Part shown: one piece after another, positions 40,562 to 46,773 of the stretch
Numbering within the stretch: position 1 is the first letter of the stretch
Layout of the letters: every line of letters starts with the position of its first letter
From: Alphaproteobacteria bacterium
GTDB lineage: Bacteria > Pseudomonadota > Alphaproteobacteria > MPNO01
NCBI GenBank assembly: GCA_964291675.2
Contig: OZ219866.1
Location: 3,424,001 to 3,488,000 of the forward strand
Reading direction: 5' to 3'
Length of the DNA: 64,000 nucleotides
Notes under the pieces: model-generated
What the model saw: the letters and a program-made list of their open reading frames with translations, nothing else
What the model was told of the DNA's origin: nothing
Database searches by the model: none
Made by a program: the position numbers and the translations under genes

Positions 40562-41943
40562 ATGACCGGCGGATCCAACATTGCATCTCTGAAGGCGGCG
40601 CTTGCGGCGGCCGAGGCGCGGGCCGCGAACGCCGAGGCGAAGGTGTCGGACGCCGAGGCGGAGATCGCTTTCCTCAAGCTGGCGGTCGAGAAGCTCCGGC
40701 GCGAGCTCTACGGGCAGCGCTCGGAGCGCAAGCAGCGGCTTCTCGACCAGCTCGAGCTGCAACTCGACGAGCTTGAGGCGAACGCGACGGAGGACGAGCT
40801 GGCGGCCGAGCAGGCGGCGGCCGGCACGACCGAGGTCAAGGGGTTCACGCGGCGCAAGCCGGCCCGCAAGCCGTTCCCGGCGCATATTCCGCGCGAGCGG
40901 AAAGTGGTTCCGCCGCCGACATTCTGCGCGTGCTGCGGCTCGGAGAAGCTGTCGAAGATCGGCGAGGACGTGACCGAGACGCTGGAGGCGATCCCGCGCC
41001 AGTGGAAGGTGATCCAGACGGTGCGCGAGAAGTTCACCTGCCGGGCTTGCGAGAAGATCGGCCAGCCGCCGGCGCCGTTCCACCCGACGCCGCGGGGCTG
41101 GGCTGGCCCCAACCTGCTGGCGACGATCCTGTTCGAGAAGTACGGGCAGCACCAGCCGTTGAACCGCCAGCGCGACCGCTACGCGAGGGAGGGTATCGAT
41201 CTCAGCCTGTCGACCCTGGCCGACCAGGTGGGCGCGTGCACGGTGGCGCTGAAGCCGCTGCACGATCTGATCGAGGCCCATGTCATGGCGGCGGAACGCC
41301 TGCATGGCGACGACACCCCGGTGCCGGTGCTGGCCAGGGGCAGGTGCGCCACCGGGCGGGCCTGGGTCTATGTGCGCGATGACAGGCCGTTCGGCGGTCC
41401 GGATCCGCCGGCGGCGCTGTTCCGCTACGCGCGGGACCGGTCCGGCGCTCACCCGGTCGCGCATCTGGAGACCTTCGCCGGCATCCTCCAGGCCGACATC
41501 TACGCCGGCTACAACGCCCTCTATGTGGCCGGGAGATTGCCCGGGCCCGTGATCGAGGCTGCGTGTTGGGCGCATTCGCGAAGGAAGTTCTTCGATCTCG
41601 CCGACATCGCGGCCGGGAAGAGGCGCGGCAAGGACCCGCCGCCGGTCTCGCCGCTCGCGCTGGAGGCGGTGAAGCGGATCGACGTGCTGTTCGATATCGA
41701 GCGCGGGATCGTCGGCAAGTCCGCGGAGGAGCGCCTCGCCGTGCGCCGGGAGTTGAGCGCGCCGGTGCTGGCCGAACTCAAGGAGTGGATGCGGGCCGAG
41801 CGCGTGAAGCTGTCGAAACATGCCCCGGTGGCCAAGGCGATGGACTACATGCTCAGGCGCTGGGAGCTGTTCGCCCGCTTCCTCGACGACGGCCGCATCT
41901 GCCTCACCAACAATGCCGCCGAGAGGGCGCTCAGAGGTATTGC
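40562..41943 (+). pseudogene. tnpC: IS66 transposase TnpC, 5' part (interrupted at RGIA|LGR)
   Basis: LYGQRSE, LHGDDTP, CWAHSRRKF, TNNAAERALRGIA. Confidence 0.92.
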
Positions 41944-41971
41944 GACGATGGAGTCATTCTGCACCCCTTCT

Positions 41972-44044
41972 TCAAGTGTCTGAAAACATTGACATCTGAT
42001 CCCGACATGAAGCGCGACGCGGGTCTTTCCGCAGTGCCAGGGCGTTGGCGACCCGCTCGGAATGGAGGTCTTTGGCCCTGATTTGCCAGGGCGCTCCGGG
42101 AACGAGTTGCGTGGCAGGTAGCGTTCCATCCTCGATCAGGCGCCTGAGGGTATGGCTGGTCGTGCCCAACTCTTTCGCCGCCTCGGTCATGGTGCGCCAG
42201 TCGCCCTGCTTGTCCGCTGAGAGGTAGCCGTCGATCCCGTTCACACGCCGGATCGATCCGACCCGGTGAGCGGTCCAACTCTTGTGCTGCCCGGTCCGCA
42301 TACCCATCCGGTTGAGCGACGCGGCGATATGTTCGTCCGACCATCGCCCGGCCATGCTGCGTATCACTGCCAGAGCTTCCTCGGGCGTTCGGCAGCCATG
42401 TTCGCCGCTCTTGGGCTTGCGGACCCTGAGACGGGAATGACGGCCACCCATCCAGTGGATCGTCAGCAGGACGTCACGCGCCTCTTCGTCGACATCGACG
42501 ATTATGCCCATGATCAGGGTGCGCACGAGACGCTGGCGGGCGCGCATGCTCACCCCGGGCGCGTTCCAGGCGGCCTTCAGGTCGTCGGCAAGTCCGGCCA
42601 GGTCGGGGACAGTGGGCCGCGGCGACGGCATCGCGCCCAGCCTTGCTTCGCACGCCTGGACGCGTCGAAGCGCTGCCTCCCAACTCTTCTCCAGCTCGGC
42701 GGCGATCAGCCGGTTGTCCGGATCGCAGGCGGCGTAGCGCCGCTCGGCGAGCGCCGCCTCGTAGCGGGCTTGCTGCAGATCCAGCTCGGCCACCCGTTGC
42801 TGTTCGGAAAGACCCTCCGCGTTCATCCGCTCGGCTTCCAACGAGGCTTCCACCGCCATGGGCTCCACGACGCGGAGGATCTCATCGGCAACGGCCGCAT
42901 CCACACGCGCACCCCCGAACCCCAGACAGGGCTCTAGCTCGAGCTGGAGGTGTCGCCGATTGCAGCGGTAGACAGGATTGCCGGGCGTGCGACCGGAATA
43001 GGCAACGCTCATCGTGCGTCCGCAGCGTGCGCAACTGAGGAGGCCGCCAAGAAGCGCCCGCCCGCCGCGCCCCGACTTCGTGCCCCCCGCCTTGCCGAAG
43101 GCATTGGCGGCGAGCTGCGCCTGGTTGCGCTCGAACTCCGGCCAGTCGATGTAGCCCTCGTGATGGTCCTTCAGCACGACCTCCCATTCCGCCATCGGCT
43201 TGCGGTGTCCATAGCTCTTGCGCACGCGCCCGTCGACGATCTCGGTCCGCCGCTCGCTTTTGCCGTAAGCGTAGACCCCGGCGTAGAAAGGGTTCTTCAA
43301 CACCGAAATTACGTTGCGATAGCGGATCGGCGTCCAGTCGAAGGAGACCATTGTCCTGCCATCCGACGGGCGTGGGAAGCAAAGCTTCTGCCCGCTCAGC
43401 GCCAGCAACACCTGCCGCGCGCTGCCAAGCTCGCGAAACCGGGCGAATACCTGACGGATCGCTTCCTGAACCCGAATGTCGGGGTCCAGCCCCAGCCCGG
43501 CCTCGGGATGCCAGACGTAGCCGATCGGGACGCTGATGCGAAGCTCGCCGCGGGCGGCCTTGGAGCGGGCGGCCTCGAACATCCGAGCGCGCAGAACGCC
43601 GAGTTCGAACTCGCTGATCTGGCCCTTCATGCCGAGCAGCAGACGATCGTTGGGGTGGCGAGGATCGTAGATGCCATCCTGGTCGATGACGCGTGCCTCG
43701 ACGAGACCGCAGAGCTCGAGAAGATGGTGCCAGTCCCGGCCGTTGCGAGAGACCCGCGAAGCCTCGAAACAAAGCACGGCTCCAACGTCCCCGGCGCACA
43801 GCCAGGCGACGAGGCGCTCGAAACCGGGCCGCGCAACGGCACCGTCCGCCGACAGGCCCTGATCGTCGTCGATGACTTCGACCCGGGCAAAGCCGTGCCC
43901 GCGCGCCACATCGACGAGATCGTATTGGCGGCGCTGGCTCTCCAGATTGTTCCGCATCTGCTGGGGCGTGGACTGACGGACATAGACCACGGCCTTGCGC
44001 GTCAACACCGATCGCGGCAACGCTTCAGCGACGCCCATCGTCAT
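41972..44044 (-). CDS. Large serine recombinase (Y4bA/Y4pH-like) with Zn ribbon and C-terminal HTH
   Basis: AVVYVRQST, SRVSRN, LLLGMKGQISE, CARCG..YRC, terminal TEAAKELGTTSHTLRRLI. Confidence 0.93.
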   Translation of the reverse strand: MTMGVAEALPRSVLTRKAVVYVRQSTPQQMRNNLESQRRQYDLVDVARGHGFARVEVIDDDQGLSADGAVARPGFERLVAWLCAGDVGAVLCFEASRVSRNGRDWHHLLELCGLVEARVIDQDGIYDPRHPNDRLLLGMKGQISEFELGVLRARMFEAARSKAARGELRISVPIGYVWHPEAGLGLDPDIRVQEAIRQVFARFRELGSARQVLLALSGQKLCFPRPSDGRTMVSFDWTPIRYRNVISVLKNPFYAGVYAYGKSERRTEIVDGRVRKSYGHRKPMAEWEVVLKDHHEGYIDWPEFERNQAQLAANAFGKAGGTKSGRGGRALLGGLLSCARCGRTMSVAYSGRTPGNPVYRCNRRHLQLELEPCLGFGGARVDAAVADEILRVVEPMAVEASLEAERMNAEGLSEQQRVAELDLQQARYEAALAERRYAACDPDNRLIAAELEKSWEAALRRVQACEARLGAMPSPRPTVPDLAGLADDLKAAWNAPGVSMRARQRLVRTLIMGIIVDVDEEARDVLLTIHWMGGRHSRLRVRKPKSGEHGCRTPEEALAVIRSMAGRWSDEHIAASLNRMGMRTGQHKSWTAHRVGSIRRVNGIDGYLSADKQGDWRTMTEAAKELGTTSHTLRRLIEDGTLPATQLVPGAPWQIRAKDLHSERVANALALRKDPRRASCRDQMSMFSDT

Positions 44045-44524
44045 CCTCCTTCACCGGGGCGGTCGCCGCTTCCAGAAGCAACCCGGCCACTGCGCTCACC
44101 ACCGCGTCTCGTTCCTCCGAGCTCAGACCGCGCAGCGTCGGTGCGTCGAGCGGCATGCCGAGCTGTCGGGGTTCTCTCGGCGGTCGCGCTGTTACAGGCA
44201 AAGACTTCATCGCGCTCCTCTCCGCTAACGGTTCCGTCATCGGGGGAGCTATGTCGAAAACCTGGCCGACGAGAAGCTCGTGAAGTGCGGCGAGGGCGGC
44301 CGGGGAGGCACGCGGCGCGCCGATCTCCATGCCGGCGCATGACGCAGGATCAAGCATCCAGGCGGGTATCTTGATGATCAGCCCCGGCTCTACCTCGACG
44401 GAGGCCATGAGGCCGTCTGCACGCTGTTCGATAACTTCAGGGCGTACTCGCCGACCGAACAGTGCGTGCCAGCGGTAGTGGATGACGCAATCCTGCCCGA
44501 TATGGGCAGAATGAATGCGCGATC
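44025..44524 (-). CDS. Recombinase-associated accessory ORF (Y4bD/DUF5372-like N-part, with an in-frame small ORF starting at 44210)
   Basis: VIHYRWHALFG..IPAWMLD; internal RBS GAGAGGAG before ATG 44210; overlaps the recombinase start; 5' end cut by the att site. Confidence 0.6.
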
Positions 44525-44526
44525 GC

Positions 44527-44746
44527 CCTGGGCCGCAAGTCATGGCTCTTCGCCGGCTCGGACCGCGGCGGCGTACGCGCGGCGGCGATGTACACGCTCA
44601 TCGGCACCGCCAAGCTCAACGATGTCGATCCGCAGGCCTGGCTCGCCGACGTGCTAGACCGAATCGCGGACACGCCGCAGACCAGGCTCGAAGAACTCCT
44701 CCCCTGGAACTGGGTTCGGGAACAGAAGCTCGATCAGGCCGCATAG
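44527..44746 (+). pseudogene. tnpC: IS66 TnpC, 3' part
   Basis: LGRKSWLFAGSDRGG..MYTLIGTAKLNDVDPQAWL..LLPWNW. Confidence 0.92.
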
Positions 44747-44856: not shown

Positions 44857-46773
44857 GAGTGCCAGGCTAACTGGTGGAAGGGTAGCGGGTGAAAGTCCCG
44901 CGAAACGAAAGGAGTAGCCAACCACGTTTCTCCGCGAGCCGTGCATCGTCGGCCGTGAGGCCGGGGGTGAAGCGTCGGTAGCGGTGCATGCGGGCAGGGA
45001 TATTGAGCGCCGAAAACGAGATGGTCCGAAGTGCCGAGACGTTTAAGCTCGTCGAAGGCAACATCGTCCACACCGCAATATGGCGAGGTGTGGGGGAGCT
45101 TCGCGGCGTCGGGGACCCCATGCACGCATGTAAGCCCACCACCGGGACCTGGGAGGTCTTCACACTGCCCCGATGGTCGTATCGGGGCCGCGAAGGGAAG
45201 GAGGTATCCGAAGCCTGAGATGAACGGAGTGAAGAAGTCGGACGGGGCCATAGTACCGTCGAAGCGGGCGAACAACGGGGCGCGAGCCTCTGCGGAGTCC
45301 GTGGAGGAAAGGGCCTCGACCAAGGGGAATCCGCGAAGCGAAAGCACGCGCCGGACGCAGAGCCGGGAAAGCGTGACCCAGGCCGCCGAGCGGATACGTC
45401 AAGCTGCAACGAGGAAACCGCAGGAGAAACTGACGGCGCTCCTGCATCATGTCACGCCGGACGCGCTGCGCTGGGCCTTCCACGCGCTGAAGCGGGACGC
45501 CGCGGCGGGGGTGGACGGCATGACATGGGCCGAGTACGCGAACGGGCTGGAAGAGCGGCTGCTCGACCTGCACCGGCGCGTACAGTCCGGGGCGTATCGG
45601 GCGCCGCCGGTCCGGCGGGTAGAGATACCCAAGCCGGATGGCGGGACACGACCGCTCGGCGTCGCCGCGCTGGAGGACAAGATCGTCCAGAAGGCGGTGA
45701 CGGAGATCATCCTGACGCCGATCTACGAGCCGGTCTTCCTCGGCTTCAGCTACGGGTTCCGACCGGGGCGCGGGGCGCATGACGCACTCGACGCGCTTGC
45801 TGTCGCCATCAATCGGCGGAAGGTCAACTGGGTGGTCGACTGCGACATCCAAAGGTTTTTCGATTCTGTTTCGCGGGACTGGCTCGTCCGGTTCCTTGAG
45901 CACCGGATCGGGGATCGGCGGGTGATCCGGCTGATCGCCAAGTGGCTGAAAGCCGGCGTCATGGTCGATGGCCGGTGGGAGGACACGCAGCAGGGCACGC
46001 CGCAAGGGGCGATCGTCTCAGCCACGCTGGCGAACGTGTATCTGCACTATGTCCTCGACCTCTGGTTCCATCGCAAGTGGCGGCCCGAAAGGGCAGATGG
46101 CGATGCCATCATCGTACGCTACGCCGATGATGTGGTCGTCGGCTTCCAGCGCAAGAGGGACGCGGAACGCTTCCTGCATGCGCTTGGGGAACGGCTCGGC
46201 CAGTTCGATCTGGCCCTGCATCCGGCCAAGACCCGGCTCATCGAGTTCGGCAGGTTCGCGGAAGTGGACCGCCGGGCACGGGGGCTGGGCCGCCCGGAGA
46301 CGTTCGACTTCCTGGGCTTCACGCACTATTGCAGGACGACCAGGAGCGGGCAGTTCGGGCTCGGACGCAAGCCCGTTGCAAAGCGGATGAGCCGCACCCT
46401 GAAGCGCATCGCGGAGGTTCTGCGGCGGCGCAGGCACCACGACCTCCACGAGGTCGCCCGGTGGCTGGGGCGGGTAGTCAACGGATGGCTGAACTACTAC
46501 GCCGTCCCGACGAGTGCCCGCTTCCTGCGAAGCTTCACCTACATCCTGAAACGGATATGGCTGAAGGCGCTGCGCCGACGGTCGCAACGGGATCGCTTCA
46601 GCTGGCAACGGCTGCAAGCCCTGGTTGACCGATACTGGCCCAAGCCATGGATCCGACACCCGTGGCCGGGGCAGCGGTTCGACGTCAAATACCCGAGGTA
46701 GGAGCCGGATGGCTTAACGGCCACGTCCGGATCTGTGCGGGGGGCGCCGGGAAACCGGCGTCCCTACCGCGAC
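44857..46773 (+). mobile_element. Group II intron 1
   Basis: 5' GAGTG (GUGYG variant); DV gagccggatggcttaacggccacgtccggatc; DVI ending CCCTACCGCGAC; EBS1 loop TAAGC (45044-48) pairs with exon GCTTA. Confidence 0.88.
45220..46701 (+). CDS. ltrA: Group II intron reverse transcriptase/maturase
   Basis: AAAGVDG, IPKPDGGTRPLG, SYGFRPGR, GTPQG, RYADD, FDFLGF, GWLNYY; no HNH domain. Confidence 0.95.
   Translation: MNGVKKSDGAIVPSKRANNGARASAESVEERASTKGNPRSESTRRTQSRESVTQAAERIRQAATRKPQEKLTALLHHVTPDALRWAFHALKRDAAAGVDGMTWAEYANGLEERLLDLHRRVQSGAYRAPPVRRVEIPKPDGGTRPLGVAALEDKIVQKAVTEIILTPIYEPVFLGFSYGFRPGRGAHDALDALAVAINRRKVNWVVDCDIQRFFDSVSRDWLVRFLEHRIGDRRVIRLIAKWLKAGVMVDGRWEDTQQGTPQGAIVSATLANVYLHYVLDLWFHRKWRPERADGDAIIVRYADDVVVGFQRKRDAERFLHALGERLGQFDLALHPAKTRLIEFGRFAEVDRRARGLGRPETFDFLGFTHYCRTTRSGQFGLGRKPVAKRMSRTLKRIAEVLRRRRHHDLHEVARWLGRVVNGWLNYYAVPTSARFLRSFTYILKRIWLKALRRRSQRDRFSWQRLQALVDRYWPKPWIRHPWPGQRFDVKYPR

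Follow-up and report, generated by a model that had tools for sequence, protein, structure and literature searches.

The window analyzed here, a stretch of 64,000 nucleotides from an alphaproteobacterial genome (assembly GCA_964291675.2, contig OZ219866.1, positions 3,424,001 to 3,488,000), contains a 2,583-bp element that interrupts tnpC, the transposase gene of an IS66 insertion sequence, and that encodes a large serine recombinase (LSR). A second gene of the element, open reading frame A (ORF-A), is split between its two ends. We think it fairly probable that this is an IS66-targeting LSR element whose ORF-A is whole only where the element ends are joined, and that the ORF-A product is made there, binds the LSR, and biases the reaction. 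The Shine-Dalgarno (SD) sequence, the ATG, and the first five codons of ORF-A sit at the LSR-distal end and the remainder at the other end, so that the gene is whole only at the joined site attP, in a circle or a head-to-tail tandem. In the integrated state, ORF-A would lack a start, and the LSR and a further small gene, ORF-B, each with an SD of its own, could be made. Once the ends join, the distal SD and ATG would complete ORF-A, and its protein would be made only then. That protein is predicted to dock at the coiled-coil base of the LSR and would bias the joined-state reaction, either toward integration into a new IS66 copy or by blocking re-excision. Ribosomes finishing ORF-A would reach the LSR start and could thereby raise LSR translation, and excision of the element would restore the reading frame of the IS66 transposase.

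The element occupies positions 41944–44526 of the window, has a duplicated GC at its borders, and lies inside the IS66 tnpC in frame. The IS66 unit begins on the + strand at ~39715 and was found with Pfam and NCBIfam to consist of a tnpA-like helix-turn-helix (HTH) ORF, a TnpB_IS66 ORF, and then tnpC from 40562. Its membership in the IS66 family is based on matches to PF03050 (3.9e-82), PF13005, PF13007, and PF13817 on the two tnpC pieces, and to PF01527 and PF05717 upstream. The coding sense of tnpC breaks off at 41943, where the peptide before the core ends ...NNAAERALRGI, and picks up again at 44527. The flanks abut in frame to read ...ERALRGIA/LGRKSWLFAGS... (the slash marks the joint), with the conserved ...RGIA/LGRK... 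motif across the joint. Two further full copies of the element were found in the genome, in a different IS66 tnpC with flanks heavily substituted relative to those of the window, and these are inserted at the same codon. The window copy and the second genomic copy are identical from precisely 41942 through 44527 except at one internal position. In addition, 41941 is followed directly by 44525 in contigs from two of the sequencing runs, with 2,583 positions skipped and two letters that fit either side. These exact boundaries and two shared letters indicate conservative insertion at a GC dinucleotide, as is expected of a serine recombinase; a 2-bp crossover dinucleotide is present at both junctions, and exactly two letters are shared at the empty-site joint.

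The ends of the element predict a symmetric site when joined. On the + strand, the arm TCATTCTGC is located at 41954–41962 and the arm GCAGAATGA at 44506–44514, each 10 nucleotides (nt) from a GC (41942–43 and 44525–26). The attP predicted on joining is therefore GCAGAATGA-N10-GC-N10-TCATTCTGC, a 9/9 inverted repeat (script score 9). Read along the minus strand, the LSR stop TGA (41974–41972) is followed by the SD-like AGAAGGGG (41971–41964) and by an ATG (41957–41955). In the integrated state this ATG gives only MTPSSQYL before a stop codon. Across the joined ends it reads MTPSSRSRIHSAHIGQDCVIHY... (the joined-end read was also recorded as MTPSSRSRIHSAHIG...), in frame with the upstream ORF. 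In the integrated window sequence, an ORF lister can start the body of that ORF only at an ATG in the flank, at 44543. An earlier note on this DNA, made from the sequence without database searches, had described the arms, the GC spacing, the TGA, AGAAGGGG, the ATG at 41957, its short integrated product, and the joined reading, and all of these were found in place.

Relatives of the element were gathered by an alignment-based scan of one genome per species, which gave 252 loci; the best 80 were examined together with this genome's two copies. The examined relatives come from Alpha-, Beta-, and Gammaproteobacteria and a few other phyla. They yielded 75 motifs of the ORF-A-proximal (P) end, of which 50 had a recognizable LSR-distal (D) end, 11 had too little contig, and 14 had no D end. 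The earlier note had named conservation of the ribosome-binding site, the ATG, and the frame across attP in homologs as a check on its proposal, and this conservation was seen in all 50 elements with both ends. Each of these D ends has the order LSR C-terminus, stop, purine-rich tract, 6–7 nt, ATG, 11 nt, and core, and each P end reads core, 10 nt, and then CAT TCT GCC CAT (His-Ser-Ala-His). The ATG is invariant (50/50), 14 nt from the core, and in frame with ORF-A, and the junction ORF is open in 50/50 elements when the P-side core is used. Positions −15 to −7 relative to the D-end ATG are 94% purine family-wide. An SD match of at least 6 nt precedes 21 of 44 distinct D-end ATGs, compared to 78 of 1,837 other ATG triplets in the same elements, and when the threshold is at least 4 nt the counts are 40/44 and 615/1,837, respectively.

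The placement of the genes relative to each other is similarly regular. The ORF-A stop merges with the LSR start as ATGA in 36 of the 50 elements and as GTGA in 6, while the distance from the LSR stop to the ATG of ORF-A downstream of it is 14 nt in 37, and the two overlap as ATGA in the remaining 13. With ORF-A ending on the LSR start codon and the LSR ending next to the ATG of ORF-A, the genes form a closed loop on the circle. The core dinucleotides are equal at both ends in 37 of 49 elements (GC, AC, GT, or TT) and unequal in 12. Cultured strains whose element is intact and has equal cores include Jannaschia formosa 12N15 (L030) and Aromatoleum anaerobium LuFRes1 (L080). The insertion context is also recurrent: P-end flanks that read A/[LIV]xR[KRSN]..[LF]F antisense numbered ~49 of 65 by eye (41/65 by regular expression), and 31 of 42 D-end flanks matched ...ERxxRPI by regular expression.

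ORF-A has the marks of a translated gene that lacks a start of its own within the integrated element. When intact it is ~160–173 codons long. Over codons 10–45 the entropy by codon position is 0.72/0.64/1.49, and the codons of residues such as Y, R, W, H, and G are constant in their first two positions and vary in the third; this third-position wobble indicates that the region is translated. Of 48 distinct ORF-A copies, 37 contain no ATG, GTG, or TTG between the edge of the element and the invariant YRWH motif, and the position of the first start inside the element ranges widely, between codons 0 and 51. Therefore the layout on which junction-dependent expression rests is an SD and ATG at the D end (50/50) and a body at the other end that has no start of its own (37/48). 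Furthermore, 27 of 65 integrated copies with at least 90 nt of flank, including this genome's second copy, have no in-frame start in the flank before a stop is reached.

Structural modeling supports binding of the ORF-A product to the LSR. In the model of ORF-A alone, residues 4–90 (predicted local distance difference test score, pLDDT, ~90) form strands and a helix, and the tail (pLDDT ~30–40) is predicted to be disordered. A complex model of the LSR and the ORF-A domain scored 0.72 (runs 0.72, 0.74, and 0.69), versus 0.00 for the best of three controls. This score is attained in 58 of 80 solved complexes and in 2 of 110 mismatched pairs, counts that hold only roughly here because our own alignments were used. 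The runs agree in at least 82% of contacts, and the pLDDT of the partner is at least 75. The modeled interface involves LSR residues 337–344, 388–405, 478–510, and 528–538 and the C-terminal helix region of ORF-A (64–84), placing ORF-A on the zinc-ribbon domain at the exit and re-entry points of the coiled coil, i.e., at its base. This is the site at which known directionality factors act.

The LSR itself has the three expected domains above the Pfam cut-off in one protein of >400 residues: PF00239 (2e-20, residues 18–167), PF07508 (1e-17, 193–313), and PF13408 (2.5e-07, 331–388). A conserved ...VYVRQS... is found near its N-terminus. The NCBIfam XisF and CcrA/B/C models match it only below their cut-offs, and among solved structures it is closest to the SPbeta integrase (E 1.7e-07). 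The LSR also has a C-terminal excisionase/MerR-type HTH (window 41972–42190; HTH_17 5.5e-06; TIGR01764 excise 30.1 bits against a cut-off of 28.8), and this HTH is conserved across 31 homologs. That the LSR recombines att sites is suggested by indirect signs, namely the multiple insertions, the empty sites, and three assembled junctions.

Those three junctions bear out in part the expectation of the earlier note that the ends of the element join. A search with the attP-arm pattern in two collections gave 16 matches, 3 of which were genuine (L106, L112, and L115) and 13 of which were chance matches in unrelated genes; viral contigs gave 0 matches to the pattern. The three genuine contigs come from public sequences of homologs and have the predicted geometry: LSR 3′ end, SD, ATG, 11 nt, core, 10 nt, arm, and ORF-A, with no tnpC flank. 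ORF-A at the junction is fully open in L112, frameshifted in L106, and cut off after the N-terminal domain in L115. The 60-kb contig of L106 begins with the junction, an IS1182-like transposase lies in the upstream LSR copy of L112, and L115 is truncated downstream. The three contigs fit tandem and circular forms alike. We considered L112 and L115 as free circles and rejected this, as neither has a terminal overlap, L112 contains the insertion sequence, and L115 is truncated. Contigs of element length (L093, 2,583 nt; L092; L041; L029; and L096) were likewise rejected as circles, as both of their ends fall at the core and no junction is present, which is typical of repeat unitigs. Such short-read contigs of metagenome-assembled genomes (MAGs) that are one element long are examples of assembler collapse of a repeat, hence insertion sites are often lost. 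The empty site, for its part, cannot be read as excision because the depth in run X2 is several-fold greater over the IS66 flanks than over the element, and the joint may stem from another IS66 copy or strain. The assembly contains no uninterrupted copy of the window IS66.

The features of the element are listed in Table 1.

Table 1. Features of the element and the interrupted IS66 tnpC, in window positions.
Feature	Position	Strand	Details
IS66 tnpC 5′ part, through GC core	40562..41943	+	Pfam DDE_Tnp_IS66 3.9e-82, zf-IS66, LZ_Tnp_IS66; NCBIfam transpos_IS66 7.1e-119
Left copy of 2-bp crossover core GC	41942..41943		Identity between two insertions begins at 41942; empty-site joint
LSR-distal (D) end	41944..41962	-	10-nt spacer and 9-nt arm (GCAGAATGA on minus strand) holding ORF-A ATG 41957-41955
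SD-like AGAAGGGG	41964..41971	-	6 nt upstream of ATG, directly after LSR stop
LSR, 690 aa	41972..44044	-	Resolvase, Recombinase, Zn_ribbon_recom; C-terminal excisionase-type HTH, residues 618-661
ORF-B, 61 aa (MKSLPV...DDDGRR)	44025..44210	-	Own SD GGAGAGGAG and ATG; +1 frame inside ORF-A tail; overlaps LSR start by 20 nt
ORF-A body	44041..44524	-	~90-aa folded N-terminal domain from the very edge of the element; disordered tail; TGA overlaps LSR ATG (ATGA)
1-nt deletion site, peculiar to window copy	44262		Sister copies, remnant, and run contigs carry the extra base
ORF-A-proximal (P) end	44506..44524	-	9-nt arm (TCATTCTGC on minus strand; encodes His-Ser-Ala of HSAHIGQ) and 10-nt spacer
Right copy of GC core	44525..44526		Comparison of insertions; empty-site joint
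IS66 tnpC 3′ part (LGRKSWLFAGS... to stop)	44527..44746	+	Pfam DDE_Tnp_IS66_C 9e-20; flank peptide A/LGRKSWLFAGSDRGG
Flank ATG	44541..44543	-	Antisense of tnpC Ser-Trp codons; start taken by ORF callers in integrated state

The second small gene, ORF-B, has a start that does not depend on the junction. An SD-preceded ATG or GTG was found in 47 of 47 elements in which the frame could be followed (of the 50). As delimited by script, ORF-B is 55–98 residues long, mostly 58–72; the longest, 98 residues in L036, results from an upstream GTG taken by the script. The two-frame (+1) arrangement of ORF-A and ORF-B was found by motif regular expression in 33 of 49 other elements, and none was detected by that expression in the other 16. 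Where the two genes overlap, the third-position wobble lies in the frame of ORF-B, and the ORF-A tail is therefore open but unconserved. ORF-B was modeled as one long helix.

A bolder version of our proposal, which we regard as rather doubtful, is that the recombination state is encoded in the topology of the genes and read by translation, with a toggle in which ORF-A occludes ORF-B and licenses integration. In the integrated state, initiation by ribosomes would be confined to the LSR and ORF-B, the latter as the excision factor, and the element would be competent for excision. In the joined state, ribosomes would run through the unconserved, always-open tail of ORF-A, occlude the ORF-B start, and reach the LSR start. 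The ORF-A domain would then be a directionality factor of reverse logic that licenses integration, and the switch would need only the joining of DNA and no regulator.

Several observations weigh against the proposal that ORF-A is made only at joined ends and acts there on the LSR. Some in-frame flank start is present in 38 of the 65 integrated copies, the window copy included, and it is an ATG in 23; some ORF-A could therefore be made while the element is integrated. The frame across the joined ends is not independent evidence because it is imposed by the fixed N10-core-N10 geometry, and neither is the ATG, as it mirrors the His codon of the opposite arm in a palindromic site. The HSAHIGQ codons are almost without wobble (entropy 0.20/0.04/0.18), which points to a DNA-level constraint on top of coding, i.e., the 5′ end of ORF-A doubles as a recombinase site. 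The score of the complex model is a model confidence, not a measurement. Translational coupling is not strictly needed, since the LSR has its own SD. In this genome itself the junction foreseen in the earlier note was not recovered: the contigs of runs X1–X3 have no attP (go-back) joint, only the integrated form and the empty site. The directionality or targeting role that the note proposed for the accessory product is a putative one, and the proposed toggling of the IS66 transposase would follow solely as a consequence of precise excision. The junction contigs of the homologs are not clean circles. Finally, 14 P ends with at least 3.4 kb downstream had no recognizable D end; because all of their LSRs are broken (truncated or interrupted), these were taken as uninformative rather than supportive and were left out of the 50.

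The palindrome and the missing wobble would fit an alternative that we think is unlikely, in which the purine tract and the ATG belong to the recombinase binding site, ORF-A starts from flank or non-canonical codons, and the frame is a by-product of geometry. ATGA does mirror the TCAT of the other arm at equal distance from the core, the HSAHIGQ codons are constrained at all three positions as DNA-level selection would have it, and of the 38 flanks with an in-frame ATG, GTG, or TTG, 14 share the same “codon −10” ATG, which comes from conserved tnpC Ser/Ala-Trp codons (counted by eye among the 65 integrated copies). A binding site, however, does not account for the purine tract, which has no mirror in the opposite arm (CCATATCGGG) and is kept both where it is non-coding (37/50) and where it falls inside the LSR ORF (13/50). 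The D-arm bases beside the ATG vary (GCAGA, GCACA, GCACT, and GTATA) while the ATGA never does, and the overlap of the LSR stop with the ATG in 13 elements is a typical coupling layout. In addition, 27 of the 65 flanks have no start at all, and the starts in the others are at scattered distances. We count the unmirrored tract, the variable arm beside a fixed ATGA, the placement of the LSR stop, the wobble over codons 10–45, the many copies that lack a start inside the element, and the flanks that lack one as evidence that is independent of the site geometry.

The contexts of the three junctions raise a different alternative, namely that ORF-A is completed mainly in chromosomal head-to-tail tandems and serves multimer resolution or copy-number control. 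All three junctions are in contexts larger than, or unlike, a simple 2.6-kb circle, and no contig is a closed circle as judged by terminal overlap. Short-lived circles would seldom be assembled, however, so their absence says little, and tandems most simply arise from circles. As the junction sequence is the same in both forms, the logic of the split gene would be unchanged. We consider it quite unlikely that tandems are the main setting of ORF-A.

It is very unlikely, in our estimation, that ORF-A is a classical directionality factor for excision, made at a low level by read-in transcription and flank starts, with the distal ATG adding expression after excision. The modeled interface at the zinc-ribbon/coiled-coil base, the site of action of known directionality factors, and the in-frame flank ATG of the window copy are what such a factor would lead us to expect. 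Yet the 27 integrated copies that cannot start ORF-A from the flank, this genome's second copy among them, would then be unable to excise. The conserved start is placed where the integrated state cannot use it, and ORF-B, with its own start in 47/47 elements, is available as an integrated-state factor. Excision is thus an improbable role for ORF-A, given a conserved start that is unusable in the state from which excision proceeds and the many copies whose flank offers none.

The accessory ORF from which the earlier note set out is indeed open in the window, over 172 residues, but it is not a single gene: it consists of the N-terminal domain of ORF-A fused to ORF-B by a 1-nt deletion, and two genes are present. 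The base missing near 44262 is found in both sister copies and in an 84% identical remnant, and an extra T is there at full depth in all contigs covering the site in runs X1, X2, and X3. The deletion in the window is probably an assembly error or a rare variant. That the 172-residue ORF is instead a real functional variant is highly improbable: it is open in the assembly, and three database proteins (P0007, P0009, and P0013) also join an ORF-A-like N-terminal domain to an ORF-B-like C-terminus, but the deletion is absent from the sister copies, the remnant, and every covering contig of the three runs, the +1 two-frame form recurs in 33/49 other elements, and ORF-B has its own SD-preceded start in 47/47. 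The remnant, near the beginning of contig C2 (C2:2698-3370), comprises only ORF-A, ORF-B, and tnpC flank, and the sequence adjoining it reads like the C-terminus of an IS21 IstB.

The sister copies, at C1:902539-905313 and C2:1235494-1238268, are identical over at least 4.5 kb including their flanks (at least 1.7 kb of left flank), and may be one locus assembled twice or a recent duplication. A second LSR module, described below, is likewise on both C1 and C2, the reported contamination of the genome is 6.67%, and some stretches of these two contigs may represent a single piece of DNA that entered the assembly twice. Variation in how the element is inserted was seen among the relatives. In L055, L064, and L084, the ORF-A end adjoins the sense ...ENxIRPIA part of tnpC, i.e., the insertion has the opposite orientation; a palindromic GC core would permit this in L055 and L084, and L064 has a non-palindromic GT at that end. 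One MAG has three copies (L033, L035, and L037) with the cores GC/GC, AC/GC, and GC/AC, and the mismatched cores resemble what reciprocal homologous recombination between copies in distinct IS66 variants would leave.

No family was found for ORF-A in Pfam or NCBIfam. A match to Raffinose_syn in 25 of 46 members, below the cut-off, was rejected as spurious. Foldseek with the ORF-A model gave no match in the PDB at E ≤0.001. In a wide structure search with VIA-align, the best Z was 6.8, to SH3-like barrels (KOW, Tudor, and the NusG C-terminal domain), which is within the stated background; as the matches are at background level, only the description “small SH3-like barrel” was kept. In a protein-language atlas the nearest clusters to ORF-A were DUF5372 (0.92, 218/256 features). 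The Pfam model of DUF5372 (PF17342) matched neither the window ORF nor, at E ≤5, any of 46 ORF-A sequences, and hhalign of ORF-A against an alignment of 30 DUF5372 sequences gave a weak match (E 0.0023, probability 12.5%, 48 columns). With a profile–profile match this weak, we call ORF-A DUF5372-like, not a member. The two are alike in being small proteins encoded directly upstream of an LSR and in a motif (HYRWHPLYGR in ORF-A and THPFHPLHGR in DUF5372). Unlike ORF-A, a true DUF5372 gene that is present in this genome begins with an ATG of its own. That gene belongs to the second, distantly related LSR module (C2:3649410-3652735, minus strand, with a twin on C1 near 1137550), which encodes the DUF5372 protein of 108 residues, an HTH-like protein of 152 residues, and an LSR of 718 residues. 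A full-text literature search returned no paper that names DUF5372, and we know of no described function for it.

The ORF-A family appears to be widespread. A profile of the ORF-A N-terminal domain matched 2,034 cluster representatives at E ≤0.001, and relatives were found on 167 plasmid records, mostly of Rhizobium and Sinorhizobium. The called N-termini of the relatives are highly variable, and among the matches listed many begin at profile positions 12–14. Gene callers assign ORF-A arbitrary N-termini, often from antisense tnpC codons. A full-text literature search, which did not extend to subscription journals and supplementary files, returned no description of the element family, which is apparently large and undescribed.

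Two other features of the region were noted. A scan of 41800–44700 for promoters and terminators gave 0 sites of either kind, and such a scan is uninformative for this high-GC genome. Directly downstream of the IS66 there is a group II intron (region 44892–46701), with an Rfam group-II-D1D4-6 match at 44892–45118 (170 bits) and a reverse transcriptase/maturase ORF at 45031–46701 on the + strand (RVT_1 and GIIM).

Elements whose joined ends create expression signals are not without precedent. Tn4451/Tn4453 of Clostridium are small elements moved by an LSR (TnpX) via an excised circle, in which the joined ends assemble a promoter for the recombinase gene. Tn4451 is larger than the element described here and carries cargo, and we know of no IS66 target for it. 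In both cases joining of the ends creates an expression signal that is not there in the integrated form. In Tn4451 that signal is a promoter for the recombinase, whereas in the present element the joint supplies the body of a distinct accessory ORF with its ribosome-binding site and ATG. Junction promoters are also known from IS911, IS30, IS21, and IS110. State-dependent promoters of integrative elements include Pcirc of ICEclc and P3′end of ICEKp1 (PMC13023037). With all of these our system would share a dependence of expression on joined ends, and recombination proteins that are made when the element is free. Junction promoters act on transcription, mostly of the recombinase gene, whereas here it is a coding sequence that is split, the product is a putative cofactor, and the genes form a closed, coupled loop.

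The element also resembles gene-intervening elements that are excised by LSRs, such as skin (SpoIVCA), SPbeta (SprA-SprB), and the fdxN element (XisF). A further example is gin in gerE (PMC5595907). The likeness lies in the precise in-frame interruption, in the pairing of an LSR with a small accessory factor, and in the prospect that excision would restore the gene. Those elements interrupt a developmental gene of the host, whereas the target here is the transposase of another mobile element, in many copies and taxa. The present element is also only 2.6 kb long, and no split accessory gene is known to us for the others. Promoters formed at joined ends were thus already known; what is new here is a coding sequence split across attP with a product predicted to bind the recombinase, the closed loop of coupled genes, and a 2.6-kb family dedicated to IS66 tnpC.

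Serine integrases are major tools of genome engineering, and control of their direction is the key practical and mechanistic question. If our proposal is correct, the element would be a compact system, with 2.6 kb encoding a recombinase plus two small proteins and with a recombinase-binding cofactor made only after the ends join, and this would be a new way of coupling state to direction. Through the split gene, the element would be able to tell its inserted state from its free state. These elements are parasites of a parasite, in that they specifically break IS66 transposase genes, and this bears on the activity of IS66 in symbionts and on plasmids.

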